From assembly GCA_040755035.1 (NCBI GenBank), contig JBFMBU010000082.1, positions 25,464-89,463 on the forward strand: a stretch of DNA of 64,000 nucleotides. The letters run 5' to 3'. The notes below the pieces were generated by a model. The model ran no database searches, was not told the origin of the DNA, and saw only the letters and a program-made list of their open reading frames with translations. Made by a program: the position numbers and the translations under genes. The stretch's first letter is position 1; every line of letters begins with the position of its first letter. Shown here piece by piece: positions 11,946 through 39,543 of the stretch. Source of the stretch: Thermodesulfobacteriota bacterium. GTDB taxonomy: Bacteria > Desulfobacterota > RBG-13-43-22.

Positions 11946-12368
11946 TTAAGGATCAATGCGGGCCGTGGCCTTGCCGCTCAAGACTACCGCTCCGTTCTGA
12001 TTGGTCGTTTCCACTTTAAGATCTACAAAAAATTGACCGTTTTCTTCCCGAAGGGCTTCCACCGTGGCCTTGGCTTCCAGGTCATCTCCCGGCCAGACCT
12101 GGTTGGTGAAACGGACCCCATAGTTGGTGAGGCGGCCATCCCCGACATAATTGGTGAGCATCTTTCCCGTCATTCCCATGGTCAGCATACCATGGGCGAA
12201 AACCGAAGGATACCCGGCCACCTTGACCGTAAAGATTTCATCGGTATGAATGGGGTTATAGTCTCCGGAAGCCCCGGCATATTGGACGATCTGGGTCCGC
12301 TTCAGGTCTTCAACAACCTTTTCCACATGTGTATCTCCCACTTTGAGAGCGCTTGCTTTTAGTGCCAT
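11946..12368 (-). CDS. MaoC-like (R)-specific enoyl-CoA hydratase/dehydratase, hotdog fold
   Basis: MaoC dehydratase motif (YAGASGDYNPIHTDE...FAHGMLTMG). Start taken at MALKAS (12368), which is preceded by GTGAGGA. The upstream extension of the ORF is not credible. Confidence 0.75.
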   Translation of the reverse strand: MALKASALKVGDTHVEKVVEDLKRTQIVQYAGASGDYNPIHTDEIFTVKVAGYPSVFAHGMLTMGMTGKMLTNYVGDGRLTNYGVRFTNQVWPGDDLEAKATVEALREENGQFFVDLKVETTNQNGAVVLSGKATARIDP

Positions 12369-12379
12369 CTGTTCGGTCC

Positions 12380-12880
12380 TCACTTTCCTTGATCTACGGC
12401 CCGTTCGGTTTGAACGCCCACCCCGCGCGAAGTAATAACCAATTCGCCCTGTTGATCCCGGAATTCGATGATAGTTTCGGTAAAGATCAATTTGCCGGAG
12501 CGGCGTCCCTCTTTCTCCCATTTTTTCCCGGGTTTCACCATGGCCGTAAGTACCTCTCCCGGGCGGGGATGGCGGTGGTATTCATAATGTTGTTCGGCGT
12601 GAAGACCTCGGCCCCCGCCGCTCCTCTCTCCTCCCTCTCCGGGTTTTATCCCGGTTGGTTCTTTTCCGGAGCCGAACCAGGGCTGGCCGATTTTGGGACG
12701 CAGAAAATAATCCGGGTCAAACTGGGCGGCGGCCTGAATAAAGGTCGGGGGGGCGATAATACCCCCCGATTCGGTTTTTTTGGCATATTCCTCATCATAG
12801 TAGATCGGATTGGCATCTCCTACAGCCCGAGCGAACATCATGATGTGCCCGGCCTCGATTGGAAATTTTTCAATAGCCAT
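12380..12880 (-). CDS. MaoC N-terminal-like hotdog dehydratase subunit (HadA-like partner)
   Basis: About 166-aa hotdog-fold protein. The true start is MAIEKF at 12880. Paired with the MaoC gene 12 bp downstream, like HadAB/HadBC heterodimeric dehydratases. Confidence 0.6.
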   Translation of the reverse strand: MAIEKFPIEAGHIMMFARAVGDANPIYYDEEYAKKTESGGIIAPPTFIQAAAQFDPDYFLRPKIGQPWFGSGKEPTGIKPGEGGERSGGGRGLHAEQHYEYHRHPRPGEVLTAMVKPGKKWEKEGRRSGKLIFTETIIEFRDQQGELVITSRGVGVQTERAVDQGK

Positions 12881-12956: not shown

Positions 12957-14261
12957 CTAATGTTTTTCCGGGATATAAGGTTTTGGTTTTCCCGCCATAA
13001 AAACAGTAAAAATGGCCAGCAAATAGATGCTTCCAAATAAAATCAGGGCATAATTATAATTGCCCATGTAATCGAAAATCAAGCCGGAAACAAAGGAACC
13101 GCTGGAAGAGCCGATGGCTTGAGTAAAGGCCACCGTGCCCATGATGGTCCCGAAGGCCGCTAAACCGAAATAATGACTGACCACGATGGGCAACAAGACA
13201 ACGATTCCTCCCATGCCGAAACCATAGAGAAGGACATAGATCCAGATCATGATGGTTGAATGAAAAGAAAGGAGAAGAAAGACCGCCAGGGCCTGGACCC
13301 CGAAGCAGGCCGTGGCCACATAATGAAAGGGCCAACTTTCCGAGAGCCTCCCAAAAATTAATTTCCCCAGGCCGCCAAAACCGGCCGTAAGACCCATAGC
13401 CATGGCGGCCGCGGTTGAGGCCAATCCGGCCTCGATCACCAAAGGGACCTGGTGCTGAAGGACCCCGCCCTGGGCCATGGGGGCCAAAAGGAAGGTCAAG
13501 GCCACCCAGAAAAAAGTCCTGCTCCTCAGAGCCGGTTTCAAAGGCCAGTCCGTATCTCCGGAGGAGCTCACTACCGGCAGGGGTGTGGTTTTCTTCAAAG
13601 GATTATCATTTTCCTCCGGGATGTCCCCATCGGGTAAAAGACCCATTTCTTCCGGGTTGGCCTTTAACACAAAGAGTGTCAAAGGAATGGCCAGTACCCA
13701 GACCAAGAGTCCCATAAAGATATAGGAGGCCCGCCAGGAGAATTGAGCGTTTAAAAATCCCACCAAAGGGGACATGACCAAACCCCCGACAGAGATACCG
13801 ACCATGGTGATCCCGATCGCCGTTCCCCGGCGGCGGACAAACCAGCGGGCCAGCAGGCTGCTGATGGGGATAAAGCCGATGCCGGTGGTGGTGACAGATA
13901 AGAGGGCATAAGCCAGATAAAAAAACCAGAGGGTCTGGGTAAAACTAACCATGATGAAGGCCGCTCCGGTCCCCAGAGCAAAGGCCGTCATGATCCGTTT
14001 CGGACCATATTTCCCGGCCAGATATCCTACCAGGGGTGCACAGGCGCCATGGATCATCTGATAAATGGACATGGCGAAAGACACGGCCGCCCGGCTCCAG
14101 CCGAAGGTTTCCTCAAAAGGTTTGATGAAAATACTGAAAGAATAAAATCCCGCCCCGGCGAAGAGGAAAAGCAAAACAAATCCGGCGGCTACGATCCAAA
14201 AACCGTAAAAGATCCTTCCTGTTTTTTCTTTACCTGTTTTATGTTCTATGGAATGGCTCAT
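12957..14261 (-). CDS. MFS transporter (OFA-like)
   Basis: 434 aa with 12 transmembrane helices and a central loop. MFS motifs are present. Confidence 0.8.
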   Translation of the reverse strand: MSHSIEHKTGKEKTGRIFYGFWIVAAGFVLLFLFAGAGFYSFSIFIKPFEETFGWSRAAVSFAMSIYQMIHGACAPLVGYLAGKYGPKRIMTAFALGTGAAFIMVSFTQTLWFFYLAYALLSVTTTGIGFIPISSLLARWFVRRRGTAIGITMVGISVGGLVMSPLVGFLNAQFSWRASYIFMGLLVWVLAIPLTLFVLKANPEEMGLLPDGDIPEENDNPLKKTTPLPVVSSSGDTDWPLKPALRSRTFFWVALTFLLAPMAQGGVLQHQVPLVIEAGLASTAAAMAMGLTAGFGGLGKLIFGRLSESWPFHYVATACFGVQALAVFLLLSFHSTIMIWIYVLLYGFGMGGIVVLLPIVVSHYFGLAAFGTIMGTVAFTQAIGSSSGSFVSGLIFDYMGNYNYALILFGSIYLLAIFTVFMAGKPKPYIPEKH

Positions 14262-17680: not shown

Positions 17681-18715
17681 CTATTTTCTCAGCAAATCGA
17701 TGAAGGCCTCGATCCGAAAACGGGTCCGCCGGTCAATAGGGCCTGGTTTATCCCCTTCCAGGGTCAAAATCGGAAGGGAAAGATGCTTTCGGATCAAAAA
17801 GTCCTGCACCTGGCGGAAACAGAAGGTCTGAGTATAATGGATCAAGCCGTCCAGGTTTCTCTCCTGCACGGCTTGCCGGATATCATTTATCCGGCCAAAG
17901 ATATCATAGGGATAGGTATAAGCCAGATATTGACTAAGCAGGTCTTTGCTAAAATGAGGCATGCTGAATTGGCGCTGAATTTCATTAAAAACCACCCGGC
18001 CGCCAGTCTGTTCGATAAATTCGTACAAACCGGATTGAATGGGTGGAATGCCGACATATCCCAGCCTGACCGAGGTTCTGATAGGGGATCGACGGTAGAT
18101 TTCATTCAAAAAGGCTGCCAATTCCCTTTCAAAACGATCCAGGTCCCCGTTGAAATCGGAGCTATTAACCAGGAAAAGGTGATTTTCCCAACCGTGTATT
18201 CGGTTCCCTTGCCAGGTTTCGCGGTCCAAGTCCGCCAGTTGGATCCGAAGGGAATGTATCCTTTTTTTCATACGTCGGACCTGATTCCAGTTGGTCCCGA
18301 AATCATCCATAAGGGCTTCCAGGTTATTTTTGAGCAGATCGGGGTTCTTGTCAAAGGGATAATTGAAATGGATGACCCGGATCCCCTGATCTTCAAGAAT
18401 TTCGGTCAGGGCCTGGGTGTTGCTGCAATCCCCCTGGGTGACGGCGATAACGGTCCGGATCTCAGGCCTGGCCTGGAGAGCGGAATAAATACCCTTGATC
18501 CAACTGCACAAGGTTCGGGGAAAACCCTTTTCTTCAGCCTCCTCCACCCAGGTTGCCGCCTGAGGCGAGGAGATAAAGACATTATTCAGGTCCACCGGCT
18601 TGAGGCCGGCGGCATAAAGGATTTCCACCGGGACCGTGGAGGTGATGCCGATAAACCGATTTTCAATATCCATGGATTCCCGTTGAAGATTTTTAAGACC
18701 CTTAAAATTTCTCAT
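17681..18715 (-). CDS. 2-hydroxyacyl-CoA dehydratase family subunit (HgdB/D-component-like)
   Basis: 344 aa of the HgdB/BcrC family. The start may be M15 (18673). Only one dehydratase-type subunit is present. Confidence 0.7.
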   Translation of the reverse strand: MRNFKGLKNLQRESMDIENRFIGITSTVPVEILYAAGLKPVDLNNVFISSPQAATWVEEAEEKGFPRTLCSWIKGIYSALQARPEIRTVIAVTQGDCSNTQALTEILEDQGIRVIHFNYPFDKNPDLLKNNLEALMDDFGTNWNQVRRMKKRIHSLRIQLADLDRETWQGNRIHGWENHLFLVNSSDFNGDLDRFERELAAFLNEIYRRSPIRTSVRLGYVGIPPIQSGLYEFIEQTGGRVVFNEIQRQFSMPHFSKDLLSQYLAYTYPYDIFGRINDIRQAVQERNLDGLIHYTQTFCFRQVQDFLIRKHLSLPILTLEGDKPGPIDRRTRFRIEAFIDLLRK

Positions 18716-18850
18716 AAATATTCGGCTTCCCGGGCCTGCTACCTTTTAAACATAAGCGACTTAAAGAGTCAAACAAGAAAAGAGGGAAACCGGGGGGCAT
18801 TAGGCGCTTATGAATAGAATTCTACGCAAATTGGATAGGATTATTAACAG

Positions 18851-26977: not shown

Positions 26978-27185
26978 TAAATTTATTTTTGGGAACGGGT
27001 TATCCATTTCATAGAATTTCTCCTTATCATCGGGTTTGCAAGCCATGAAGCATCTCAAAGATTTTAATGCCTTTTCCCAAGATTACTCCAGTGATCATAA
27101 TAGTAATGCCTGTTCACCCTTTTGCCAAGGGCTTTTTCTCTGATCGGATATTGACAACGAGACTATTTTTTGATTGAATGGCAAC

Positions 27186-27812
27186 ATGAGTGACGTAATC
27201 CAACCCATACTACTCATCATCCTGTCCTATCTATTCGGATCCATTTCCACCGGGGTGGTGCTTTCCAAGATTTTCGGCAAAGGGGACTTGCAGGAATCGG
27301 GAAGCAAAAATATCGGGGCCACCAATGTCTCCCGTTTAATGGGTCTTAAGTGGGGGATCCTGACCCTGGCCGGTGATACGCTAAAGGGGATCTTGGTTAT
27401 TTGGATCGGTTGGCGGTTTTTCGGAGCAGGATCGGATTCAGCCTTTCTAATCATCGCTCTCATGGGCCTGGCCGTATTTTTAGGTCATCTCTTCCCAATT
27501 TTTCTTCGATTTAAAGGCGGGAAGGGGGTTGCCACAGCCCTGGGGATTTTTCTTCTCCTGGGACCTAAGGCCATTCTGATCGCTTTACCCATTTTTATCG
27601 TCGTAGTTATTTTAGGAAAATATGTTTCCCTGGGGTCCCTAATTGCCGCCGCTTCCTTCCCCTTGGTCATGCTCTTTTTCCATTATCATTTTTATTACGT
27701 CCTTCTGGCGGCTGTGGTGGCCCTCGCCGTCATCCTCAAACATAAAACCAATATCTTCAGATTGCTCCGTGGGGAAGAAAAGCCCTGGCGCAGCAAGGAA
27801 AAAGCCGTTTAA
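27186..27812 (+). CDS. plsY: Glycerol-3-phosphate acyltransferase PlsY
   Basis: PlsY signature (GSKNIGATNVSR) and about 5 transmembrane helices. Confidence 0.85.
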   Translation: MSDVIQPILLIILSYLFGSISTGVVLSKIFGKGDLQESGSKNIGATNVSRLMGLKWGILTLAGDTLKGILVIWIGWRFFGAGSDSAFLIIALMGLAVFLGHLFPIFLRFKGGKGVATALGIFLLLGPKAILIALPIFIVVVILGKYVSLGSLIAAASFPLVMLFFHYHFYYVLLAAVVALAVILKHKTNIFRLLRGEEKPWRSKEKAV

Positions 27813-28063: not shown

Positions 28064-28468
28064 TTAATAATCATTCTTCTTTTCTATAGAAACCCATCTC
28101 GGTGCTGATCGTGTCCCCAAGTTATGGATAACTCTTTTGTCTCTCAACTCCATAATTAAGTTGTGGATCAGGGCGTATTTTTGCTCTCCGGTTAAAATTT
28201 CGGGTAATTTGTCAAATATAAGATGATTAATCTCTTTTCTCGAAACAGGCCCATGTTCTCGGATCAATTCCAAAATCAAATCCTTATAATACTTCCGATC
28301 AAGACCTCTGGTTCTGATGTGTTGGGCCTGCTTGCCTATAACCTTTGCAATTTTTGCGCTGATATATATATTTGGATATCTTCCTTCAACCAGACTGAGT
28401 TTTTTCAACCGTTGATGAGCCTCTCGCTCGATTCGGATTCCTTTTTGGACCTTGTCCAACGGGATCAC
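28064..28468 (-). pseudogene. C-terminal wHTH fragment of a degraded COG2865-like (AlbA_2/HATPase_c_4/HTH) regulator
   Basis: 134-aa winged-helix-like tail. Lies 118 bp and one frame away from the 28586..29050 fragment. The N-terminal AlbA_2 (Schlafen-like) domain of the family is absent. Confidence 0.4.
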
Positions 28469-28585
28469 CGCCCAGAGATCAAGGTCCGTTCCAAGACATT
28501 TCTTGCTATCGTTCTGAAAAGTTATATGGTTTTGGACCTATTTATCCTCGGAATTAAATTGGACCATTCGCGCATTAATTGCGCA

Positions 28586-29050
28586 CTAATTGGGCATTCC
28601 ACCTTTCTGTCTTTGTAAATACCTGACCGATCTTCCCTTCCCCTCCTTGATAAAAAGCCCCTTTTCAACCAATTCTATAAGATCTTTTAGGGATTGACGG
28701 CGGCTTATTTCACATAGCTTTTGATAATCACGGTTCGTGATATACCCGTGTTGCCTGGTATATTCAAGTCCCTTCTTCTGCCGTTCATTAAATTTTTGTT
28801 CTGTTGGCAGTGAAATTATTTTTTCGGGCTTTATAAAACGGGCCATAAAGAAACCAGATTCTGAGAAAAATTCCAGCTTAATACCAGTCCCAGCGCAGGC
28901 ATCTGCCATACGTAAGGTTCCGGTTCCCCAATGCTCGATCAATCGTGCCCGATAAAAGGCCAAGGCGATCTTTGGATTGCGAGGGAGCGAAGGGTGTTCT
29001 CGATAAAGGCTCTCAACGGAGAGGGTAGGCGGTAAGGTGCCGGGTTTCAA
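28586..29050 (-). pseudogene. HATPase_c_4 (RecG-C-terminal-like) + wHTH fragment of a COG2865-like regulator
   Basis: LIEHWGTGTLRM signature of the HATPase_c_4 family followed by a wHTH. The ORF is N-terminally truncated relative to full-length family members. Confidence 0.5.
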
Positions 29051-29106: not shown

Positions 29107-29691
29107 TTACCATTTTTTAGCGATTGAAACTGGAAGCCCTACTCGCATAAAAAATCGAGCAAAAGCTTGGGATAAATGCTCTCTGTAGGGTGGGAGTAAT
29201 CGAAATCTAGGGACATTTCGTTGTTGAAGCAACGATTCTAAAAATTGACGTGGAAGGTTAAAGACCTCTCGAAAGTCAACAATTCGAGTTTCGATATTCT
29301 GTTTCCCCAATTTGCATTCATTTATCATTGAAAAATTCCATATAAAGCCATCACAAATGCCATCGCATTGGGCTTTCCATGCTTTATCTGTTGGATTCTG
29401 AGTCCGGTTCTTCATTTCTGCTTCCCAGTCCTTCTTATATTCCGAGAGTGAAATGTGGGAGCAAAGAATTACATTGGGGACTTTATTCTGTTCAAGATCA
29501 CAGGCTTGTGTCATAACAACAACATCTGCAATGATCGATATAATAGCGTTTGATAGTACCTCTGCTTCTAAGCTGCCTTTCAAAGCCAAATTACCGGCCT
29601 CCCAAGTAACAATTGGGCAATTTGCAATAATATCCCCCTGAGTTAGAGGCCTATCAGCATCTACTATTTCGTACCACTGATTATTCATCAA
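29107..29691 (-). CDS. Hypothetical protein (island operon gene 3)
   Basis: 194 aa with no recognisable family. Its start overlaps the stop of the upstream gene by 11 bp. AT-rich codon usage. Confidence 0.5.
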   Translation of the reverse strand: MMNNQWYEIVDADRPLTQGDIIANCPIVTWEAGNLALKGSLEAEVLSNAIISIIADVVVMTQACDLEQNKVPNVILCSHISLSEYKKDWEAEMKNRTQNPTDKAWKAQCDGICDGFIWNFSMINECKLGKQNIETRIVDFREVFNLPRQFLESLLQQRNVPRFRLLPPYREHLSQAFARFFMRVGLPVSIAKKW

Positions 29692-30187
29692 TATCCTTCA
29701 TTATTCGGCTGCTGATTTCAATAAAAGGCTTCCAGCGAGGTAAATCATAAGTTTTTAGTGTTATTTTTTTCGAAAATAGCACGGTTCTTTTATGTGGAGG
29801 GGTGATGACCCTAAGCTGAGCCTCTGGTTCTGATTCCTCTGTTTGACAGGTTTGTGAGGAAGGCAAACAAGAAGTTATTGTAACTTGAGATTGTTCAAGC
29901 TGTTCTTCTGTGGCTTCGTATATCATATGAGGTCTCATTATTATTTCAGAAGGATTAAAACTACTCTCCTTCCCCCAATAATATTTTTCCCGTTTATGGG
30001 TTAATGAAAAAGTGGGGGCCAATGCCTTATCTCGATCTGAAAAAATAACGACAGGTGTGTTCTGTTTATTAGATTCTTCCCTTGAATTCGTTTTTAACAG
30101 AATAGGAAGGATAGCAAATGAGGTGGTAGTGGAATTAAAGTTATATTCTATCTCAGAATAAGAATACATATCTATAATTTCCTCCAT
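29681..30187 (-). CDS. Hypothetical protein (island operon gene 2)
   Basis: 168 aa with no recognisable family. Overlaps both neighbouring genes. Confidence 0.5.
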   Translation of the reverse strand: MEEIIDMYSYSEIEYNFNSTTTSFAILPILLKTNSREESNKQNTPVVIFSDRDKALAPTFSLTHKREKYYWGKESSFNPSEIIMRPHMIYEATEEQLEQSQVTITSCLPSSQTCQTEESEPEAQLRVITPPHKRTVLFSKKITLKTYDLPRWKPFIEISSRIMKDIDE

Positions 30188-30993
30188 ATTTTCTTTTGTA
30201 TCTCTTCACTTGTCAAATCTGCAAATCCACGAACGATCCATTCCCTGGCGAGGTCAAACCAGGACCACATTCTTTCAATCGATTTATCCTTTCCAATCCC
30301 CCTTACGGTTGATTCCATCATTATAATCGGAACATTAACATCCCGTGATACTCCATTGCGGATTTTAATGTGCAACCGTCCCGACTGATTTGGCAGAACA
30401 AAAGTAGTATTCCAATTGATTCCCTCTGGTTCTGGGAGAAAACGACTGTTTCCTTTTCCAATAATATGGTCCGGGAAAACCTTGCCAATTTCTTTTAAAG
30501 TCGTCCAAAGTTCATTCTGAGATATATGGTTAACGTAAGTCATTTCATATTGGAGAGGTTCTATAGGACCTAAATCGTTTTCTTTTAAAAAAGACTGAAA
30601 ATGCTCCAGACGATCTTTAAATATCGCAATAACCTCATGATACCGAGGATATGCATCATCCGGTCGGACCTTCTTCCAATTATGTAGAAACCGGTCCCTT
30701 TGTATCTGAATAATTCCTCTGCCGTCCGAATGGATAAACCAGATTCGAGGTAACGGTGGTTTGTCACTAAAAGCAAATTGAGCCTCAACTGGTCCTTCAA
30801 ATCGCTCAATAACCGGAGTTAATGGAGGAACTTCCTGGCAATTTGGATATTCACTTTTATACTTCTCCCAAATCACACCCAGGTGTGGAGCAAGCAGGGA
30901 TTCGATTGATTTAAAAAGAACTCCGCAAACCACCTCGATGACCGGGGGATTTTCATAACTGGGGAATTCTGTCTTTTTAATATTCATTTTCAT
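30172..30993 (-). CDS. TIGR04255-like conserved hypothetical protein (island operon gene 1)
   Basis: 273 aa. The N-terminal motif (YENPPVIEVVCGVLF) resembles the uncharacterised TIGR04255 family. Confidence 0.5.
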   Translation of the reverse strand: MKMNIKKTEFPSYENPPVIEVVCGVLFKSIESLLAPHLGVIWEKYKSEYPNCQEVPPLTPVIERFEGPVEAQFAFSDKPPLPRIWFIHSDGRGIIQIQRDRFLHNWKKVRPDDAYPRYHEVIAIFKDRLEHFQSFLKENDLGPIEPLQYEMTYVNHISQNELWTTLKEIGKVFPDHIIGKGNSRFLPEPEGINWNTTFVLPNQSGRLHIKIRNGVSRDVNVPIIMMESTVRGIGKDKSIERMWSWFDLAREWIVRGFADLTSEEIQKKIWRKL

Positions 30994-31126: not shown

Positions 31127-31447
31127 TTAAGTTTTATTAGAATATTCAATTAGTTTTATTTCATCAGAAGTTAAGTTATAAAGATCATAGACCAGCCGGT
31201 TGATTTCGGTTTCGAGCTGAGGAACAGAGGGGCTGTCGGGATCGGCCAGGATAGTCTGGACGAGTTTGATGATTGGGGCTTTTTGCTTTTCTGATGCAGG
31301 GAAAACAGGAACACCTCCCACATACATGGGTTTATATTGCAGGAACCCACCGGAACGGGTGGCAGCCTGAAGGCTGATCCACCATTTGCAAAGAAGTGAG
31401 TTTGAAACGGTTAAGAGGTAACGATCCTTTGTCGGGATGATATTTGC
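31127..31447 (-). pseudogene. C-terminal relic (about 107 codons) of a Type IIG/BREX-PglX-like N6-adenine DNA methyltransferase
   Basis: The frame is open from the stop at 31448-31450. It reads ...LLTVSNSLLCKWWISLQAATRSGGFLQYKPMYVGGVPVFPASEKQKAPIIKLVQTILA...EINRLVYDLYNLTSDEIKLIE, which are hallmark C-terminal motifs of these methyltransferases. There is no upstream methyltransferase body. Confidence 0.6.
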
Positions 31448-31632
31448 TCACAATCGTTACGAATGAAGGGACGAAGTTTCACACCATTCCCCGGCAGTAG
31501 AAACTTCTTTGAACTCCCTTTTTTTTATATAAGGAGCAATTTCTTCCTGGAGTTTTTGAAAGCTTTTCTTTGCCTCATCAAAACGAATTTGTTTATTTTT
31601 TTCAATTTGATTTTTAGATTCTATTTTATCAT

Positions 31633-32535
31633 TCATTTGTTTTCCTCTCTAATTCCTGCAGCAAATGAAAGGTTTTTACTTTCAATACATTTTGAAGATT
31701 TAGTCGAAACAAGGTTATTTGTTCGAATATACAACTCGTAAATCAACTCCCAAAATCTGTTTTTTACATCCTTTGATTCTATTTGTAGGCCGCATTGCTC
31801 TGCCTCTTCTCGGTAAATCGGTCTGCCATGTGTTTTGGTTCGCTCTGGTGTTAAAAATATTTTAATTTTATTTATTATTTCATCATTTGAAAATCCATTC
31901 ATCATACCGGAGGCGAGTGTTCTTATTGCAATATCTTCTGCCAAGGATTGGGCTGCCCTAAATTCCTTAATTTCCCTTTCATCATAATTTGCCAATTGCT
32001 GCAAATAAGGCTGCAAATTCCCCTTCTCGTTTACGGCTCTTAAAAATAAGTCGTCATAGCTCTCGATAACGTTATAAACTGAAAATCTTTTAACGGTATT
32101 ACCTTCGGGGATTGTGAGTTGGGGATCAATTGGGCCTAATTCTGATGTTGGCCCCATAATAATCTTGCTTGCCCCAAAACATATCATTGTTGCTGCAGAT
32201 TTTGCCTTTCCTGGTACAATTGCCCAATATTCGTCAGTTCCACTATAGCTCCTGCAGACATTAACTATCCTTTCAGCAGCAAGGCCATCACCACCGGGTG
32301 AATTAATAAATAACGCCAATCCCTTTGTCAGGTCTAGTTTTTGTAAAACCCCTTCTAACATATCAGCATCGGCATCTTCGATCATAACAGGGAACCTAAA
32401 ACTTGTAAAAAAAGAAACCACAGGCCTTTTGAGTTCTTTTTCCAACTGATCAAAAATTATTTGGCGCGTTTCATGCCCTTGGTGTTGTTCCGTTAAAACT
32501 CTCTGAATGACCGGATATGGATTTTCTTTTTTCAT
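31633..32535 (-). CDS. SDH-family Clp-fold serine protease (S49/ClpP-like)
   Basis: 300 aa. Contains LALFINSPGGDGLAAERI, the ClpP/S49 INSPGG-type active-site region. Confidence 0.65.
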   Translation of the reverse strand: MKKENPYPVIQRVLTEQHQGHETRQIIFDQLEKELKRPVVSFFTSFRFPVMIEDADADMLEGVLQKLDLTKGLALFINSPGGDGLAAERIVNVCRSYSGTDEYWAIVPGKAKSAATMICFGASKIIMGPTSELGPIDPQLTIPEGNTVKRFSVYNVIESYDDLFLRAVNEKGNLQPYLQQLANYDEREIKEFRAAQSLAEDIAIRTLASGMMNGFSNDEIINKIKIFLTPERTKTHGRPIYREEAEQCGLQIESKDVKNRFWELIYELYIRTNNLVSTKSSKCIESKNLSFAAGIREENK

Positions 32536-32596
32536 ACAATTTTCCTTTTCGAAATATTATAGCATAAAATTAATAGGAATTTATTATTATTTTAAT

Positions 32597-32806
32597 TTAA
32601 TTTCCTTCCTGTTTATTATTACCATAAGTTTCAACTAGTTCTATCTCCTCCGGTGTTAGGTTGTAGAGGCCATAGACGAGGTGGTTAATTTCGGTTTCGA
32701 GTTGGGGGACAGAGGGGCTGTCGGGATCGGCCAGGATGGTCTGGACGAGTTTGATGATTGGGGCTTTTTCACTGGCAGCAGCAAATGAGATAATCATCAT
32801 TCCCAT
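32597..32806 (-). pseudogene. Second, shorter copy of the methyltransferase C-terminal relic
   Basis: ASEKAPIIKLVQTILADPDSPSVPQLETEINHLVYGLYNLTPEEIELVE. About 110 bp of DNA (32662-32769) is roughly 93% identical to 31176-31283. Confidence 0.55.
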
Positions 32807-32854
32807 CTATTCCACTTCGGATCAGACAAACCCAAACTAATCAATTTTAGCTGA

Positions 32855-35464
32855 TTATTTTGATATTGTTTTTTGTATCAAAGCCCAATCAGTCCCTTTA
32901 GCCATAACGAACAAACATCTTCCCCCGCTTCTTTCAGCCCAAAGCTCCCCTACAACCCTTTTTTCTTTTGAATCATCATTGCTCCAGAGATGTTCTCCTT
33001 TAAATTCCACCACCAATATCCTATCATCCTGTAATTTGGCGATGAAATCGGGATAGAATCGGTCAGTAGAGGTTTGAAGCCAAAAGGATGTATCTCTGCG
33101 ACGTTCTAAATTCCGAACCCAATATTTTATTTGAGGCTGGCTGTCTAAGAATATGGCACAGTCCAATTCTTCCCCTTCGGATTTTAATTCTCCAATTGTT
33201 TTAAAAAAATGCTTTCGGAATTTGAATAAGCCTTCATAATACCAATTGGGGGCATACTTTTCTTCGATAAAACTAAAACAGAGTTCCGAATTAACTTCAA
33301 TCTTAAATGAATCCGGACCGAATAAGCATTGTTGGTAAGCCTTAAGGTTCTGAGAACGGCGGTGGTTTTGAATTTTTGACTCAAAGGCATTCTTTAACCG
33401 AAATTTTTCCCTGGCTAACCGCTCAATGGTTAGATCTCGGTGCTCGATTAGTCCACTGATCCCCTTATGGATGAAAAGACCGGTCTGGGTTTGGGGAATA
33501 TCCGGGTGGGGTATCTGACGGTCGATCCAATTTGCCAATGAGGCCACCGTCCAGCCCGGTTCCGAAGAAAGCCAGTCAAGTTGCTCATGGATTTTATCGA
33601 TAAAATGGACTTCAATCTTTCCTTGATCATCAACATCCAATTCCCCTGTGGACCCTGCAATCCTTTTTGAGGGAAATTCTCCTTCACTTAAAAAAGCGTC
33701 ACATTCAGATAGATTCCAATGAAAGTCCAAGAAGTGGCTTTCTTCAAACACCTCCAATTGATCCTCACTTCGGATCCCCATTAAGGGAATGATAAACTCA
33801 TCTTTCTTTCCTTGAGACGGCACTGACCCGTCGCCCCCCCTTGGTAATCTATCAAAAAGTTGCTTAATCGCGGTCTGATCCTCAAGACTACTCAAAGAAT
33901 TTAGAACACTCTGCCTTTCGGCGGCATTAAGATCTCCGGTTAAGGTCAATTTTCCGGTGCTTTGCTCATAAGATACTACTTGCTGAATTAAAGGAGACAG
34001 TTTTGATAAATCAGGGGGTTGGGAAATCCTTTCGAATAATGGCCCCGGATGGGTCACCCACCTGATTTGTTCATTGGGTATCACAAAATCATTGGCTTCT
34101 ATTCTTTGGAAACCGTTCTCAATGAGGGCATCCTTTAAGGCGTTGGCGGCTTCAATAAATTTAGGAGAGGCGACAAAGGCATAGGCACAATTTAATTCAG
34201 GGTGATTTTTCTTTTTTGCTCCCGGTAAACGGAGGACCCGGCCTAAAATTTGTTCTACCGCGCGGGAAGAACTGATTTCAGCTACGGAGCATAAGATGTA
34301 GGCAAAAGAACAATCCCAACCTTCCTTGAGGGCATACACCGTGATAATAAAACGAATGGGACAGGCAGGGTCAAATAAGTCAACATCATCAATCTGCCGG
34401 GTTTGACCGGTGGCTACGGCAATTTGCTCTTCTGGAATTTTAAAGTCTTCAATCAAACCCTTTCGGAGCGCTTCTACTGATAATGTTTGCTTTTCTTTGC
34501 TCTTAGGTTGAGCTTGTAACAGCACCAGAGGGCGGAGATATTCTCCCGTCAATTTTTCTTCTCTTTTTCCCATCTCCTCCAAGCTGCGCTGCATCTGGAG
34601 GGCTTCGGTAATAACCTCCTGCCAGTCCACATTGGTCGCCAACCTGATTGGAAGCTTTATCATTTCCTGGGTCTTTAGCTCGGCGGCCGACACATGACAC
34701 AAGACGTTACTGGCAAATAGTTCTTGGTCCGGTTTATGAATCATTTCAGGGGTGGCCGTAAACTCAATAATACAGGAAGGATTAAAACGGGCCAGTGTGT
34801 CGAAGGATAGTGGCGTTCGGGCATTATGGGCCTCATCCATAATAACAATGGGTCTCCATAGTCTTAAAACATTGGAAAGGGAATGCTGGAAAGTACTATC
34901 CTCTTCCCTGTCAAGACCTTCCTTAACTTTTTCGGACAAACCGGAAAAATGATGGGAAAGGGCACTGGAGGATTCATAAACCTTTCTGCCTTCTGTGTCC
35001 TCAACACGGAGGGCGGCTAAGGTTGAAACAATGATTGATGTCTCGCCCTCCAAGGTGCTTCTTTGGACATATAAGGCCTCGCTGATATCCATGACCCTGA
35101 CCAATCCTTCAAATTGAGCATCAAGCACTTGGCGGTAGGGATGTTCACGATTCCGTAAGGCAGCCAAGGTTTGGTCTTTAATAGCGTTTGAAGGGACCAG
35201 CCAGAGGCAAACGGCCCGTTCCGTTTGTAAAAAAGATCGTGCAGCAATCCCTAAAGTATGGCAGGCCATTAAGGTCTTTCCGCCGCCGGTAGGGACCCGA
35301 AGGCAAACATAAGGCAATTCAGGAAGTCGAGGAACAGACCGGTAAGGTCTTTCAGTTTGAAGCAGGAAGGCCCTTTTTGCACCCTCCAGGGTTGCCAGGC
35401 CCAAATAGGTCGTTAATTCCTCAAGACTTCGTCTCTGGTATTCTCGAAGTGGAAGCATGTTCAA
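32855..35464 (-). CDS. res: Type III restriction enzyme Res subunit (SF2 helicase + PD-(D/E)xK nuclease)
   Basis: Walker A (VPTGGGKT) and a DEAH box (VIMDEAHN). C-terminal nuclease motif (YPDF...VVEFKGE). Overlaps the end of mod by 4 bp. Confidence 0.85.
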   Translation of the reverse strand: MNMLPLREYQRRSLEELTTYLGLATLEGAKRAFLLQTERPYRSVPRLPELPYVCLRVPTGGGKTLMACHTLGIAARSFLQTERAVCLWLVPSNAIKDQTLAALRNREHPYRQVLDAQFEGLVRVMDISEALYVQRSTLEGETSIIVSTLAALRVEDTEGRKVYESSSALSHHFSGLSEKVKEGLDREEDSTFQHSLSNVLRLWRPIVIMDEAHNARTPLSFDTLARFNPSCIIEFTATPEMIHKPDQELFASNVLCHVSAAELKTQEMIKLPIRLATNVDWQEVITEALQMQRSLEEMGKREEKLTGEYLRPLVLLQAQPKSKEKQTLSVEALRKGLIEDFKIPEEQIAVATGQTRQIDDVDLFDPACPIRFIITVYALKEGWDCSFAYILCSVAEISSSRAVEQILGRVLRLPGAKKKNHPELNCAYAFVASPKFIEAANALKDALIENGFQRIEANDFVIPNEQIRWVTHPGPLFERISQPPDLSKLSPLIQQVVSYEQSTGKLTLTGDLNAAERQSVLNSLSSLEDQTAIKQLFDRLPRGGDGSVPSQGKKDEFIIPLMGIRSEDQLEVFEESHFLDFHWNLSECDAFLSEGEFPSKRIAGSTGELDVDDQGKIEVHFIDKIHEQLDWLSSEPGWTVASLANWIDRQIPHPDIPQTQTGLFIHKGISGLIEHRDLTIERLAREKFRLKNAFESKIQNHRRSQNLKAYQQCLFGPDSFKIEVNSELCFSFIEEKYAPNWYYEGLFKFRKHFFKTIGELKSEGEELDCAIFLDSQPQIKYWVRNLERRRDTSFWLQTSTDRFYPDFIAKLQDDRILVVEFKGEHLWSNDDSKEKRVVGELWAERSGGRCLFVMAKGTDWALIQKTISK

Positions 35465-37152
35465 CTGACCTTGATATCATATGGGATTTGTTTGAAGGTG
35501 ATTCCTTCTTTCCTGAGCCGGGTCTCCCCGATCCGACAACCCTCCCCATAAACAACTTTTGGCCCATCATGCCCGGGTAGGGCTTGAAGGACTTCAAGGG
35601 TCAATATATTACCGCCATTAGGCCGTTTGTCCCCCAGCACTCCATTAAACAAAAGAAAAATGGCCTGACCATTATGGATTCCTAAAAAAGGGGATTTCCC
35701 CTTTACCGTTTTAGGAATCGGCGAACCTGTCTCAGAAAAGAATACATGAGCTGATAGATCGGCAAAAGTAACCGTTGGGCGAATATTTCCGGCCTCATCA
35801 AAAAGCGGCTCCCCAAGCCTGCAATAGCGAAATCCTCCATCAAGTCCCGTGGTGTTCCCATAGCCGTTAACAGCCCTTGTTAGTCTTTGTGCCGTTACCT
35901 TGCGGCAGATGTTTTCATCCATCTCGACCAGGATAAAGCGCCGGTTTCCCCCATCCTCTTTGTTCAGGCCAAGGACAGCATGTCCGGTAGAACCACTGCC
36001 GGCAAAGGAATCAAGAACCAGAGAATCTTTGTCTGTCCCTATTTCTAAAATACGTTTGATCAATCGGGTTGGTTTTGGGGTAATAAAAACGGAGGCCGAA
36101 TCCTCAAAGTCACAAATAGCTACGAGTTCTTTTTTTGCATCCTGTGTATGGCCAACATCCTGGTAGCCCCATAGGGTTTGCGGAACGACACCTTGCTTAA
36201 CTTCGGATAAAAATCTTTTCAACTGCGGAATGGAATCCCCTTTTTTCCCCCACCAAATTCTCTTATCTGCATCAAGTTCAAGGAATTTTTCCTTTGCGTA
36301 TCGCCAGTATGCCCCCTTTGGTGGCCCCTCGATCACGCGTCCAGAAGGGCAGGTAATTGAATAGGTGCCTCTGCTGTAAGGGTTCCTTGCATCTAATCCG
36401 CTCGGTTTCCAAAGACCTCGGGGATCATTGTCTGGGTTTTTATATGCCTTGTCTTGCTTTATGGTTCGAGAGATAAGATTCGGGCGCCAGACATCCGCCG
36501 ACTTCGCATAGACAATGATATAATCATGATCTTCTGAAAAATGTTTTGCCGAATTTTTTGGAGAATAGACTTTTTGCCATATTACGGCTGCAATAAAGTT
36601 TCGCGGTCCAAAAACCTCATCCATCAGCATCCGAAGAGAGGACACTTCATTGTCATCAATACTGATAAAGATTGCCCCGTCCTCTGACAAGAATTCCCTT
36701 AAGAGCGAAAGACGTGGATACATCATGCACAACCATTTGTCGTGCCGGGAAAGATCCTCTGCCTCAGACCCTACCACCTTGCCCAGCCAACGCCTCATTT
36801 CAGGGCTATTGACGGCATCATTGTAAACCCAATTTTCATTGCCGGTATTATAGGGGGGATCGATATAGATACACTTGACCTTTCCGGCATAGAAGGGGAG
36901 CAAAGCCTTGAGGGCCAAAAGGTTATCACCCTGAACCAACAGATTCCCGCTGTCCAGGTCTCCAAGAGAAAGATTTTCTTCGTTATGTAAAAGATGATAG
37001 GGGACCTGACGGTGGTGATTCAAAACCGCCTTTTTCCCGATCCATTCAAGTGTTGGCATTTTATGCCCTTTTATTAAAAATAAATAATCTGAATCGAAAT
37101 ATATTTCATTTATCTTATTGATCGCGGTTTTGAAATATCTCCCCGAGATCAA
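35461..37152 (-). CDS. mod: Type III restriction-modification Mod subunit (N6-adenine DNA methyltransferase)
   Basis: DPPY motif (CIYIDPPYNTG) and an FxGxG region (VLDSFAGSGSTGHA). N-terminus resembles EcoP15I-Mod. The start may instead be MPTLEWIGK at 37056. Confidence 0.85.
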   Translation of the reverse strand: MISGRYFKTAINKINEIYFDSDYLFLIKGHKMPTLEWIGKKAVLNHHRQVPYHLLHNEENLSLGDLDSGNLLVQGDNLLALKALLPFYAGKVKCIYIDPPYNTGNENWVYNDAVNSPEMRRWLGKVVGSEAEDLSRHDKWLCMMYPRLSLLREFLSEDGAIFISIDDNEVSSLRMLMDEVFGPRNFIAAVIWQKVYSPKNSAKHFSEDHDYIIVYAKSADVWRPNLISRTIKQDKAYKNPDNDPRGLWKPSGLDARNPYSRGTYSITCPSGRVIEGPPKGAYWRYAKEKFLELDADKRIWWGKKGDSIPQLKRFLSEVKQGVVPQTLWGYQDVGHTQDAKKELVAICDFEDSASVFITPKPTRLIKRILEIGTDKDSLVLDSFAGSGSTGHAVLGLNKEDGGNRRFILVEMDENICRKVTAQRLTRAVNGYGNTTGLDGGFRYCRLGEPLFDEAGNIRPTVTFADLSAHVFFSETGSPIPKTVKGKSPFLGIHNGQAIFLLFNGVLGDKRPNGGNILTLEVLQALPGHDGPKVVYGEGCRIGETRLRKEGITFKQIPYDIKVS

Positions 37153-37157
37153 TTTGA

Positions 37158-37859
37158 TTACTTATGCAGGGCGTCGCCATATTCCAGAAAAAAATTCTCT
37201 ATCTGCTTCAAACGCCCTCCTTTGTCTGGTATCCCTTTTAAGATGAAGGACAGGTAAATCCGCCAGGCCGAATCCGGCAATTCCATATTGGATTCGGTCC
37301 ATCCGAATATCCAATGGGCAGGGATAATCTTGACAAAACCGGGCCAGTAATGTTGAAAAGCCTTTTCTTCTTCGCACAATAACAAATGATATCCGTAATC
37401 CTCGAGGATGTATTCAAGCCTTGACGGTCTTGGTTCTTCATCATCATCGAAGCCAGCCAAGAAATCCTGGTGGGGATCATCATAAACCAAGCCCTTAAGA
37501 TTTTCGATATCAGGATTTTCTTCGAAGTCTTCCGGAAAATCATAGGCGGGGTGTAACCCATGTGAGTTTTCATAAAACCCGGCATCCCAACCAAGAGAAA
37601 TTCCGGAATAATCTTTGCTGGTAAGAATGTAATCCCTGACCTTCTGCTGATTTTCCGTGAGGTCGATTTCACAATTATAAAGATAAGCATGGAGCCACTC
37701 TTCATAAGGGATTTCCTTATTGAAGTTTCCCTGGTCGTCTTTCGGATAATCGTTAAGACGGTAATCTTTCAGGATCAGCATATCCCTGTAAACCACTTCA
37801 TCCGGATAAGGGACAACCCATCCGTTATTAAGCACTTTTTGGATACGAAAAGATTCCAT
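37158..37859 (-). CDS. Acidic hypothetical protein co-operonic with mod-res
   Basis: 233 aa, very Asp/Glu-rich. Its stop lies 5 bp upstream of the annotated mod start. No recognisable domain. Confidence 0.5.
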   Translation of the reverse strand: MESFRIQKVLNNGWVVPYPDEVVYRDMLILKDYRLNDYPKDDQGNFNKEIPYEEWLHAYLYNCEIDLTENQQKVRDYILTSKDYSGISLGWDAGFYENSHGLHPAYDFPEDFEENPDIENLKGLVYDDPHQDFLAGFDDDEEPRPSRLEYILEDYGYHLLLCEEEKAFQHYWPGFVKIIPAHWIFGWTESNMELPDSAWRIYLSFILKGIPDKGGRLKQIENFFLEYGDALHK

Positions 37860-38166: not shown

Positions 38167-39543
38167 TCATACCTTTTTTTTCTTCCAGCGCCCCTTTTGG
38201 AAGTAAACAATATAGGCCGCCGCTCCGAAGACCAGGCTTAACACCAGGGCCCAGCGGATACCATAAACCCCCAGACCGGTCAGGCGCGGGAGCAGAAAAG
38301 CAGACGGTAAAAGAATCAGCCAGGTGCTGAGGATACTGATGAACATAGGGGGGAGGGTATCGCCACTGCCGGAAATGGCATTCTGCAGGCAGAGGATAAA
38401 TCCCTGCACCAAATAGCCGGTGGCGGCGATGCGGAGAAAAGTACTCCCGATTTGAATCAGTTCAGGTTCGATGGTAAACAGGCGCATCAGGGAGGGAGCC
38501 AGGAGCAGAACGGCAGCGGCGCAGAGGACCATAAAGCCCTCCAGGATAGCCGTGGCCATCCAGCCGGTTTGCTCGGCCCGCCGGGGTTGTTTGGCTCCCA
38601 GGTTTTGACCCACCAGGACCCCGGCCCCCATCCCCAGTCCCAGACCGGGCATAAGGACGAACATCTCCACCCGCTGATTGAGGGTATGGGCGGCCACAGC
38701 CAGGGTGCCGAAAGGAACCATGATTTTCATCAAAACCGTCTGTCCCAAATTCCCTTGAACACCCATGATCAGGGCCGGCAGGCCGATCCTGATCATTTGC
38801 CGGATGCAGACCAAGTCCAGTCGAAAACCCCGCAGGGTCAGTCTCAATCTTGAATTTTCACCAAGAAAAAGGATCCAGAGTGATATGAACATCCCCAGAG
38901 CCTGACCGATGATCATAGCCAGAGCTGCTCCCTGAACCCCGAGTCTGGGGAAAACCCACCAACCGAAGACCAGAAAAGGACTCAAAATAAGCTGGACGCT
39001 GCGGGTAAAGAGATGAATATACATTGGAGTCGTGGCATCCCCGGAGGATTGCATGAGACTGAAGGCCATCAGCCAGAGTGAATAAAAGATCCAACCGCCA
39101 AAGAGCATGCGCATATAATCAGCACCCAGGGCGGCCACCCCCGGCTTTAAGCCAAAAATACTCATTATTTGGGAGGAAAAAATTAAGCCGAGGAAACTAA
39201 AAAAGATCCCGTATAAGACGCTGACCACAAAGGCCTGGGTCCCGATATGATTGGCTCGTTGAAAATCACCACTTCCAATGGCTCTGGCCACCATAGCCCG
39301 AGCCCCGCCGACCAATCCCATTTTAGCTGAAAGGACCAACATATGGACAATAAAGGCTGTACCCACTCCAGCCACCGCCGCGGACCCCAGCCTTCCTATC
39401 CAGATCATATCCACGGTCTGCCCTACCATATAGAGGGCATTGTGGACCATGATCGGCCAGGACAGGGTGACAAGATTACCGGTGACGCTCCCCTGGACCC
39501 AGTTGCGTTGGGAAGACGATCTTTTTTCAGTGGTTGGTTTCAC
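38167..39543 (-). CDS. MATE family efflux transporter
   Basis: 458 aa with 12 transmembrane helices. MATE N-terminal signature (LSWPIMVHNALYMVGQTVDMIWIGRLG). Confidence 0.85.
   Translation of the reverse strand: MKPTTEKRSSSQRNWVQGSVTGNLVTLSWPIMVHNALYMVGQTVDMIWIGRLGSAAVAGVGTAFIVHMLVLSAKMGLVGGARAMVARAIGSGDFQRANHIGTQAFVVSVLYGIFFSFLGLIFSSQIMSIFGLKPGVAALGADYMRMLFGGWIFYSLWLMAFSLMQSSGDATTPMYIHLFTRSVQLILSPFLVFGWWVFPRLGVQGAALAMIIGQALGMFISLWILFLGENSRLRLTLRGFRLDLVCIRQMIRIGLPALIMGVQGNLGQTVLMKIMVPFGTLAVAAHTLNQRVEMFVLMPGLGLGMGAGVLVGQNLGAKQPRRAEQTGWMATAILEGFMVLCAAAVLLLAPSLMRLFTIEPELIQIGSTFLRIAATGYLVQGFILCLQNAISGSGDTLPPMFISILSTWLILLPSAFLLPRLTGLGVYGIRWALVLSLVFGAAAYIVYFQKGRWKKKKV

Follow-up and report, generated by a model that had tools for sequence, protein, structure and literature searches.

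The question raised by this locus is why a protease gene should be bracketed by two copies of the end of a restriction–modification (RM) gene whose body is absent. The locus lies in a 64,000-nucleotide (nt) stretch of a Thermodesulfobacteriota metagenome-assembled genome (MAG; GenBank assembly GCA_040755035.1, contig JBFMBU010000082.1, positions 25,464 to 89,463), hereafter the window; coordinates given without a locus name refer to it. Two relics of Type IIG RM genes, A and B, stand here as direct repeats on either side of a gene for an SDH-family Clp-fold serine protease and a small open reading frame (ORF). The explanation we favour, and hold to be probable, is that the relics are recombination scars of Type IIG tails, that is, of the 3' ends of these genes, which still work as homology arms, and that recombination between tails drives the gain and exchange of cassettes. 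The features concerned are the following.

31127–31447, minus strand: relic A, the long 5'-truncated 3' end of a Type IIG allele different from that of relic B, with a 106-codon open frame.
31198–31284, minus strand: copy A of the repeat core, from self-BLAST and the exact-run count.
31457–31636, minus strand: partner ORF of 59 amino acids (aa), whose ATG overlaps the protease stop codon (ATGA).
31633–32535, minus strand: cassette cargo gene, an SDH-family ClpP-fold serine protease of 300 aa.
32597–32806, minus strand: relic B, from the 3' end of a Type IIG RM gene, short and 5'-truncated, with a 69-codon open frame.
32683–32769, minus strand: copy B of the repeat core, encoding KAPIIKLVQTILADPDSPSVPQLETEI, 54% GC, a putative recombination tract.

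The initial annotation of this stretch had reported near-identical direct repeats of about 110 bp at 31176–31283 and 32662–32769. Both a repeat search of the window and a BLAST comparison of the surrounding low-GC island with itself recovered them at that place; the first set of coordinates held, the second was off by one (in the right register 31176–31283 pairs with 32661–32768), and the identity over this span, given as about 93%, is in fact 88.9%. According to the repeat search, the direct repeat extends over 158 nt ungapped (31127–31284 versus 32612–32769) at 82% identity, with a start-to-start spacing of 1485 bp, and a gapped alignment of the copies covers 154 nt at 83.8%. The identity is uneven, 94% in the 87-nt 5' core and 73% across the final 55 nt, and the self-BLAST returned the core (31198–31284 versus 32683–32769) at 94.3% over 87 nt. 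The two longest stretches without a mismatch measure 31 nt (31254–31284) and 29 nt (31224–31252), and each shared 29-mer is present exactly twice in the window, with none expected from shuffled sequences. By self-BLAST the tail pair is the sole notable repeat in the island, and the repeat search found no inverted repeat in or beside the copies. The translations quoted earlier were right, including the additional NSLLCKWW...SGGFLQYKPMYV block of the longer copy (31447–31127), and the protease ORF (32535–31633) does sit between the two copies, together with a second ORF of 59 codons (31636–31457) that the annotation had passed over.

What the repeats encode becomes clear from database searches. 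A word-indexed protein search with relic A returned 23 proteins, all of 60–161 aa, and an exhaustive profile search gave 11449 matches, in which the relic sequence forms the extreme C-terminus of proteins of 1000–1700 aa; the top full-length matches are aligned at their final ~115 residues. Thus the predicted similarity to methyltransferase C-termini was found. The full-length homologues carry Eco57I, N6_Mtase, MmeI_Mtase, and TaqI_C domains. For further comparisons we used 107 loci encoding the tail, taken from genomes and metagenomes and scanned with the tail profile in six frames (cited below by L numbers). The closest intact homologue is the 1260-aa enzyme of L008, whose tail is 82% identical to relic A, and a tblastn search of the window with this enzyme matched relic A to its residues 1154–1257 and relic B to its residues 1202–1260. 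The tail profile matches relic A with an E-value of 2.2e-56 and relic B with 1.3e-34, the tail homology of the latter spanning 32782–32615.

Relic A retains the final ~45 residues of the TaqI_C recognition domain in addition to the tail, the Pfam match covering positions 76–118 of 118 below threshold (E 0.13; 13 bits versus a cut-off of 26.5). No TaqI_C match was obtained for relic B, and no N6-adenine methyltransferase domain for either relic (Pfam). Relic B starts 49 nt downstream of the stop codon of a Type III res gene and is identical to protein P0019 (NCBI "AB1585_06005, Thermodesulfobacteriota MAG"), for which an exact-protein lookup returned no entry on record. The frames are open to the natural stop codon in all relic copies examined, and neither relic ATG of the window is preceded by a Shine–Dalgarno sequence. 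The relics are thus homologous to the last 65–105 residues of Type IIG RM enzymes of 1100–1300 aa (Eco57I/MmeI-like, with TaqI_C) and differ from these in having no nuclease, no methyltransferase, and no complete recognition domain; by these comparisons they are 5'-truncated gene ends, i.e., pseudogene fragments, not enzymes.

The claim that no methyltransferase body exists here was borne out: the tail profile found nothing at 27–39 kb beyond the two copies, and the whole-window tblastn search with the L008 enzyme found just two tails, with no third copy and no other methyltransferase remnant. The description of the relics as "Type IIG/BREX-PglX-like" was right in its first half. Against PADLOC models, the L008 enzyme matches the Type IIG endonuclease–methyltransferase at 2.6e-295, DrmMI at 5.6e-48, and PglX at 1.2e-23, so that the likeness to PglX is one of superfamily level. 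An assignment to BREX was rejected, given the weak PglX match and the lack of a match to any BREX model among the window neighbours (PADLOC). As for DISARM, the DrmMI match is weaker than that to Type IIG, a gene for a PLD plus SNF2-type helicase precedes the methyltransferase gene in L004 and L116, and neither drmA nor drmB was seen among the window genes, although no search was aimed at them.

The 5' boundary of relic A (GTGAGCAAATATCATCCC, window position 31451) recurs in L036 behind unrelated DNA. In L036 (545–631), approximately 28 first codons of an HsdM-like gene (MNNFNEKTNFIWPVADLLRGPYRPNQYK) are joined exactly to this shared boundary.

Differences between A and B indicate where the two copies came from. 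In the 27-codon core there are five synonymous and no non-synonymous differences, in the last 19 codons 8.5 synonymous and 6.5 non-synonymous ones (proportions per site, pS 0.65 and pN 0.15), and upstream of the core A and B are unrelated. Since these differences show the pattern of coding selection, they arose most simply inside functional genes of different lineages; judged by this pattern, A and B derive from two different Type IIG alleles. An in-situ target or tandem duplication was rejected on the same allelic divergence. The DNA that follows the upstream tail is similar to that following the downstream relic in L097 alone, not in the window or seven other loci.

The same unit is found elsewhere. 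Window positions 31141–32769 align with 10044–11672 of L001 at 84.7% identity over 1632 nt, L001/L005 being a different MAG ("delta proteobacterium"), and the order is the same: tail core, protease, small ORF, long relic. The homology stops exactly at the outer edges of both tails, beyond which the flanks differ, and L001, like the window, has no methyltransferase body. Upstream of the unit, L001 carries a DUF433/DUF5615 pair and a full-length AlbA_2/HATPase_c_4 gene in addition to a third relic. The fragments of such a gene in the window lie on the opposite side of the cassette, and thus the order of cassettes relative to tails is permuted between the two genomes. Farther along in L001 (13635–19652), 2–8 kb downstream of the relic array, there are an IS21 helper gene, a Mu-type transposase fragment, and three close tyrosine recombinase genes, which may form a recombinase-in-trio element.

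Bracketing by tails is not confined to this cargo. Extra same-strand tail copies downstream were observed in L001 (three copies), L004, L009, L037, L046, L078, L091, L097, L111, and L115, with weaker cases in four further loci; at E < 1e-4, the same-strand orientation holds for 14 out of 15 extra copies (p = 5e-4). Tandem arrays are present in L001 and L115, and relics with no methyltransferase gene nearby in L001, L117, and L036. Among the 33 strictly intact loci (those with at least 2.5 kb of downstream sequence), no upstream or opposite-strand copy was found. Most of the extra relics enclose defence or toxin–antitoxin cassettes, as follows.

L091: Gabija (GajA 7e-176, GajB 2.4e-137).
L078: KAP-family NTPase.
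L111: AAA_15/AAA_21 ATPase.
L037: Mrr_cat-NACHT protein.
L046: HerA (4e-301).
L009: RES-domain protein and an HTH/ImmA-like pair.
L004: PIN toxin and its partner.

For example, the Gabija system of L091 (2436–5940) is complete and lies between the Type IIG tail and a 24-codon relic that is 85% identical to this tail. Searches for the core at the nucleotide level were less productive: a degenerate 34-nt pattern of the core, matched exactly, had 0 matches in the metagenome collection, and as the core is identical just within a narrow group of MAGs, we switched to a peptide-pattern scan. The plasmid collection (blastn, distant mode) contained no match, and the viral collection contained three weak relatives of the methyltransferase tail (29–35% identity), which are uninformative.

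The tails themselves carry traces of exchange. In the alignment of ten tail copies with their flanks, a nearly identical block of ~75–95 nt is common to window copies A and B, the three L001 copies (c1–c3), the L004 tail and relic, and the tails of L008 and L116. Outside this core, the recognition-domain DNA just upstream is unrelated in the intact genes, and the last ~50 nt differ. The core has pS of 0.05–0.4, compared with 0.3–1.0 in the adjoining 19 codons, which makes the synonymous divergence of the ~85-nt core three- to tenfold lower. The tails are mosaic as well: the 3' end of B is nearest to L001 c2, its core is nearest to the L004 relic and L116, and the recognition-domain end of A is nearest to L001 c2 and c3. 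Judged by the alignments, such mosaicism, together with a low-divergence core, is what recurrent crossovers or conversion tracts leave behind.

Two comparisons come close to catching an event. L004 and L116 are 94.6% identical over 6.2 kb (the PLD-SNF2 helicase gene and the methyltransferase gene) and then diverge in the recognition domain; the 3' end of L116 is 87.9% identical to the downstream relic of L004 and 77.8% identical to the 3' end of the L004 gene itself. As the L116 end is nearer to the relic, L004 would have gained a foreign 3' recognition segment, a tail, and a three-gene cassette, the old end being kept as the relic. In L097, the duplication takes in not just the tail but also the 5' part of yhcG, the gene behind it (84% and 68%), as expected, on the evidence of the alignment, from allelic replacement with an imprecise right-hand junction. 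The truncation points are clustered: 22 out of 28 truncated copies away from contig edges retain at most 150 residues of the ~1200-aa gene (P = 2e-15 under uniform endpoints; one match that is not a relic was excluded from the tally).

The initial annotation had read the arrangement as cassette swapping by recombination between methyltransferase tails within a defence locus. This is supported by recurrence of the unit in a different context in L001, by tail-bracketed defence or toxin–antitoxin cassettes in at least ten loci, by the mosaic tails and the depressed synonymous divergence of the core, and by the near before-and-after pair of L116 and L004.

The process might run as follows. The last ~45 codons are conserved in the Type IIG family, and within the lineage group compared here a GC-rich core of ~85 nt (KAPIIKLVQTILADPDSPSVPQLETEI) is near-identical at the DNA level between otherwise dissimilar genes. 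Incoming DNA carrying a tail beside foreign genes could then recombine with the resident tail, either by a Campbell-type single crossover of a circular intermediate or by allelic replacement with one homologous and one imprecise or illegitimate junction. Either route would produce the tail, the cassette, and the 5'-truncated old tail, all on the same strand; repeated rounds would build arrays, and the direct repeats would permit later deletion, excision, or exchange. In the window, the Type IIG body would since have been lost or displaced, an intact Type III system now abutting relic B; the latter may have replaced the Type IIG body, or the unit may have arrived without one. The recombination may be of the RecA type, homology-facilitated illegitimate, or site-specific. 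For RecA of Escherichia coli, the minimal processing segment is ~23–27 bp. The exact runs of 31 and 29 nt exceed this minimum, and hence the 1485-bp unit is in principle excisable.

Several observations count against recombination between tails as the driving process. Breakpoints might also cluster because longer fragments, being harmful, were purged. In most loci the copies are just 72–85% identical to each other, a poor substrate for ongoing RecA recombination, and many arrays may therefore be old scars, not active sites of exchange. For the window itself, neither an excision product nor an empty site or a polymorphism came to light. Long relics have a similar recognition-domain-end segment behind different cargoes, with the one exact 5' boundary common to the window and L036, and this fits a defined, site-specific element end better than random homologous crossovers. 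The frequency is modest, a downstream relic being carried by four out of 33 strictly intact loci. Finally, the tail itself served as the seed of the locus set, some of the loci are Nanopore assemblies with frameshifts, and all comparisons involve MAGs and metagenome contigs.

A stronger version of tail recombination, which we advance tentatively and consider rather doubtful, is that the C-terminal ~140–320 nt of the Type IIG family serve as the recombination site of an unrecognised cassette system, in which the tails of cassettes would be attC-like and the resident tail attI-like, arrays would form on the same strand, and mobility would outlast the enzyme gene. The reaction could be homology-driven and self-sufficient, or could involve an unidentified recombinase, possibly stimulated by DNA cleavage by the RM enzyme. 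The model here is the integron (attC/attI, IntI), with which the loci share arrays in which short cassettes, most of them with a single function, lie in one orientation behind a fixed gene, a conserved element of ~140–320 nt after each cassette, and cargo rich in defence and toxin–antitoxin genes. They differ from integrons in that the repeated tail encodes the end of a protein and has none of the hairpin-forming imperfect inverted repeats that attC has, there is no adjacent IntI-type integrase, and the tail junctions are imprecise. Folded as single-stranded DNA, the core gave short local stems alone and no significant structure (z = −1.2, −2.7, and −1.6), and the two Rfam matches are both sub-threshold and outside the core.

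Alternatively, the repeats may be the attL and attR ends of a small integrative cassette that lacks an integrase, its tail core being recognised by a site-specific recombinase supplied in trans and the long relic being an attP-like arm; we regard this as unlikely. With genomic islands integrated at the 3' ends of tRNA or protein genes, and with their integrase-less derivatives (cis-mobilisable elements) accreted in tandem, the loci share direct repeats of the 3' end of the target gene around the insert, of which the upstream one makes the gene whole and the downstream one is a fragment pushed aside, as well as tandem arrays (L001, L115). The segment of identity, ~75–87 nt, lies between two stretches of unrelated DNA in intact genes and relics alike; the long-relic family stands behind at least five cargoes (window/L001 c3, L001 c1, L001 c2, L004, and L036/L119), in the window and L036 with an exact 5' boundary next to unrelated sequence; all copies are direct and same-strand; and the three tyrosine recombinase genes of L001 are ~4–8 kb away. 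However, the window island has no integrase, transposase, or tRNA gene, and no integrase accompanies the window cassettes. Relics begin at different points in different loci (profile positions 2 to 33), with the ends of the long relics nested; the copies that share a locus are diverged alleles, and the core shows neither a significant hairpin or inverted repeat nor an Rfam match above threshold. For a sub-family, the boundary that the window has in common with L036 leaves a fixed crossover position conceivable. The L097 duplication reaches into the adjacent gene, an outcome not expected of precise att recombination, and the target is a mobile defence gene, not a housekeeping gene as in such islands.

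It is still less probable that the relics are passive debris, left by chance deletions and insertions in a hypervariable defence island downstream of a Type IIG gene, and that the tail plays no part in the rearrangements. The island does contain other pseudogene fragments (e.g., AlbA_2/HATPase_c_4 at 28064–29050), relics occur with no methyltransferase gene nearby in L001, L117, and L036, and the proportion of strictly intact loci with a relic is low. Against this reading stand the concentration of breakpoints in the last 150 codons, the homology of the window and L001 units, which ends exactly at the tails, the depressed synonymous divergence of the core in mosaic tails, and the exclusively same-strand, downstream position of the copies.

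We give very little credence to the idea that selection maintains the relic ORFs as small proteins with a function of their own, such as decoys or regulators binding a Type IIG enzyme or its partner helicase. The open frames would fit, as would the mostly synonymous differences between window A and L036 in the recognition-domain end (five synonymous, two non-synonymous) and the fact that many relics are called as genes of 60–80 aa from a conserved Met. Yet the retained lengths, ~14 to 150 residues, are incompatible with one folded unit, the comparison of window A with L001 c3 looks neutral (two synonymous, six non-synonymous differences), neither window ATG has a Shine–Dalgarno sequence, and selection inherited from the parent genes, together with gene conversion, explains the synonymous bias. 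Finally, although target duplication does yield direct repeats around an insert and repeats of this size can mislead short-read assemblers, an in-situ (target-site or tandem) duplication or a MAG assembly artefact can be practically discarded, as the copies differ at 11–16% of positions with a signature of coding selection, their 5' extensions are unrelated, and the independent assembly of another MAG, from a different sample (L001/L005), gave the same arrangement.

We now turn to the cargo that the two relics enclose. The protease matches Pfam PF01972 with 46.6 bits (cut-off 31.3), and its AlphaFold model (pLDDT, the predicted local distance difference test, 89.7) was matched by Foldseek to ClpP structures with probability 1.00 and target-normalised TM scores of 0.56–0.66; the earlier identification as a Clp-fold SDH protease is therefore sound. 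In 53 homologues, K110, S113, and H236 are invariant and D137 is nearly so. With 53.6 bits against a cut-off of 250 for the NCBIfam equivalog NF047768 ("SDH family Clp fold serine proteinase"), the protein is, by its score, a divergent relative of this family, not an equivalog. It also matches PHROG 11747 (function unknown) at 1.2e-40 and, weakly, profiles of head-maturation proteases. A sequence search of PDB found no relative, no PADLOC family matched the protease or the 59-aa protein at E <= 0.01, and a literature search on SDH proteinases or PF01972 in defence found nothing relevant. With SDH/ClpP-fold proteases (PF01972) and ClpP-like head-maturation proteases of phages, the protein shares the fold and the region of the catalytic Ser; it differs in that the window type is always paired with an ORF of 53–65 aa, occurs in variable regions that are not prophages, and has no characterised member.

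The overlap of the ATG of the 59-aa ORF with the protease stop codon (ATGA) suggests that the two are translationally coupled. Upstream of the protease gene, a Shine–Dalgarno-like AAGGAAA is present at 32547–32541, preceded by the following element.

32556–32564, minus strand: extended −10 promoter-like element TGCTATAAT, read from the sequence, upstream of the protease gene.

This putative element is conserved as TGGTATAAT at the matching place in L001; a consensus promoter scan did not list it, and its support is at the level of the consensus alone.

A homologous ORF of 53–65 aa follows the protease in every context examined (L001, L029, L031, and L034; 38–85% identity), these contexts being a deltaproteobacterial MAG, the chromosome of Methanocella conradii, and other contigs, among toxin–antitoxin genes, transposases, and nucleases. 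In all, 2688 homologues of the protease were found; the top 120 are 64–100% identical to it and span Thermodesulfobacteriota, Elusimicrobiota, Chloroflexi, Armatimonadetes, and Archaea. Between Bacteria and Archaea, identities for the pair run from 64 to 82%. Given such identity across distant phyla and Archaea, the protease and the small ORF are, by their distribution, a horizontally travelling two-gene module. In M. conradii HZ254 (L031, 8001–9103), the pair has ~70% protein identity to that of the window, which indicates transfer between domains, and lies amid nucleotidyltransferase-type toxin–antitoxin genes and a transposase. Its architecture and neighbourhood suggest that the pair is probably a toxin–antitoxin-like or abortive-infection-type unit. 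Paralogues of the SDH protease were also observed near the Type IIG gene in L037 and L052.

The wider surroundings of the locus in the window are as follows.

27174–27812: plsY, island border.
~27.85–38.1 kb: low-GC island, 42% GC versus 51% in the rest of the window, between plsY and the MatE gene.
28064–29050, minus strand: 5'-truncated remains of an AlbA_2/HATPase_c_4 gene (Pfam HATPase_c_4, 9.9e-11).
29107–30993, minus strand: the next cassette after relic A, three overlapping ORFs of 273, 168, and 194 aa.
32855–37152, minus strand: apparently intact Type III RM operon, mod at 37152–35461 (563 aa) and res at 35464–32855 (869 aa), overlapping by 4 nt.
38167–39543: MatE transporter gene, island border.

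On the minus strand, the order from 5' to 3' is mod, res, relic B, protease, 59-aa ORF, relic A, and the three overlapping ORFs. The island genes are all on one strand with short gaps, and so read-through from the RM operon is possible. No tRNA gene was found at the island borders, nor terminal repeats of the island, and no integrase, recombinase, or transposase among the island ORFs at 27.8–38.1 kb by Pfam, NCBIfam, and PADLOC, each of which was run on most, not all, of these ORFs.

The Type III operon matches PADLOC MTase_III (3.7e-212) and REase_III (1.8e-133) and Pfam N6_N4_Mtase and ResIII; it is directly upstream of relic B on the same strand, with the junction within 32807–32854. A 233-aa ORF with no family match (37158–37859) precedes mod. 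In the cassette after relic A, the 273-aa ORF belongs to the TIGR04255 family (1.5e-17, NCBIfam), and the 194-aa ORF has a weak match to PHROG 4575; PADLOC gave no match for this operon, which looks like another uncharacterised cassette. The 273-aa ORF was considered as a counterpart of the 272-aa cassette gene of L004, and the two are not homologous. The AlbA_2/HATPase_c_4 remains match just residues 418–549 of the 555-aa L001 homologue (28489–28094), plus a HATPase_c_4 fragment. In L008, L102, and L108, the Type IIG gene has a full copy downstream, AlbA_2/HATPase_c_4 genes being frequent downstream neighbours of the Type IIG family to which the relics belong.

Some further observations concern the loci used for comparison. 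A large gene for a PLD plus SNF2/ResIII helicase precedes the Type IIG gene in L004 (1457–8271), L116 (1702–7644), and L008 (3481–10324), and the pair is conserved at 82–95% nucleotide identity, frameshifts splitting the helicase and Type IIG genes in the Nanopore-derived MAGs; this conservation suggests a two-gene system, either a helicase-assisted Type IIG or a DISARM-like one. A segment of ~400–500 nt occurs twice downstream of the L008 methyltransferase gene (12202–12728 and 13391–13764) and once each in L116 and L001; the L001 copy abuts relic c2, which makes it another repeated element in the variable region. Elsewhere in the window, two ORFs of equal length (344 codons; 17681–18715 on the minus and 17783–18817 on the plus strand) are mutually antisense.

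Tail-bracketed cassettes can be compared with two more phenomena. In defence hotspots exchanged by flanking homology, such as those of E. coli and of P2/P4 prophages, diverse systems replace one another at a fixed position with conserved boundaries (PMC12707154, PMC9122126). The difference is that one boundary here is part of a defence gene, namely its end, a second copy of which stands beyond the cargo, and hence the exchange unit carries its own homology arm and can outlast the anchoring gene. In tandem paralogous lipoprotein genes, recombination at conserved segments within ORFs moves the 3' gene end together with downstream DNA (PMC2568036); here, in distinction to such paralogs, the tail of a single RM gene is combined with unrelated cargo genes. 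The finding stands conceptually between defence hotspots, 3'-end islands, integron arrays, and the "unit of evolution spanning two ORFs" (PMC2568036). Literature searches on Type IIG hotspots and pglX relics turned up nothing relevant, and they contained no description of cassettes bracketed by Type IIG tails, which is not proof of absence.

The pattern offers a rule for finding cargo, namely, to search between the Type IIG stop codon and the next same-strand tail relic. Uncharacterised candidates flagged here are the widely transferred pair of SDH protease and small protein and the TIGR04255 operon. If the pattern consisted of mere scars of allelic replacement, it would still be a useful marker of past turnover at RM loci. 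More generally, the movement of defence systems and the build-up of defence islands are poorly understood outside prophages, integrons, and transposons. The 3' end of a restriction gene, repeatedly duplicated around Gabija, NACHT, KAP, HerA, toxin–antitoxin, and protease cassettes, suggests a simple route, one that may need no dedicated recombinase: the defence gene would supply a portable homology arm, making each captured cassette exchangeable.

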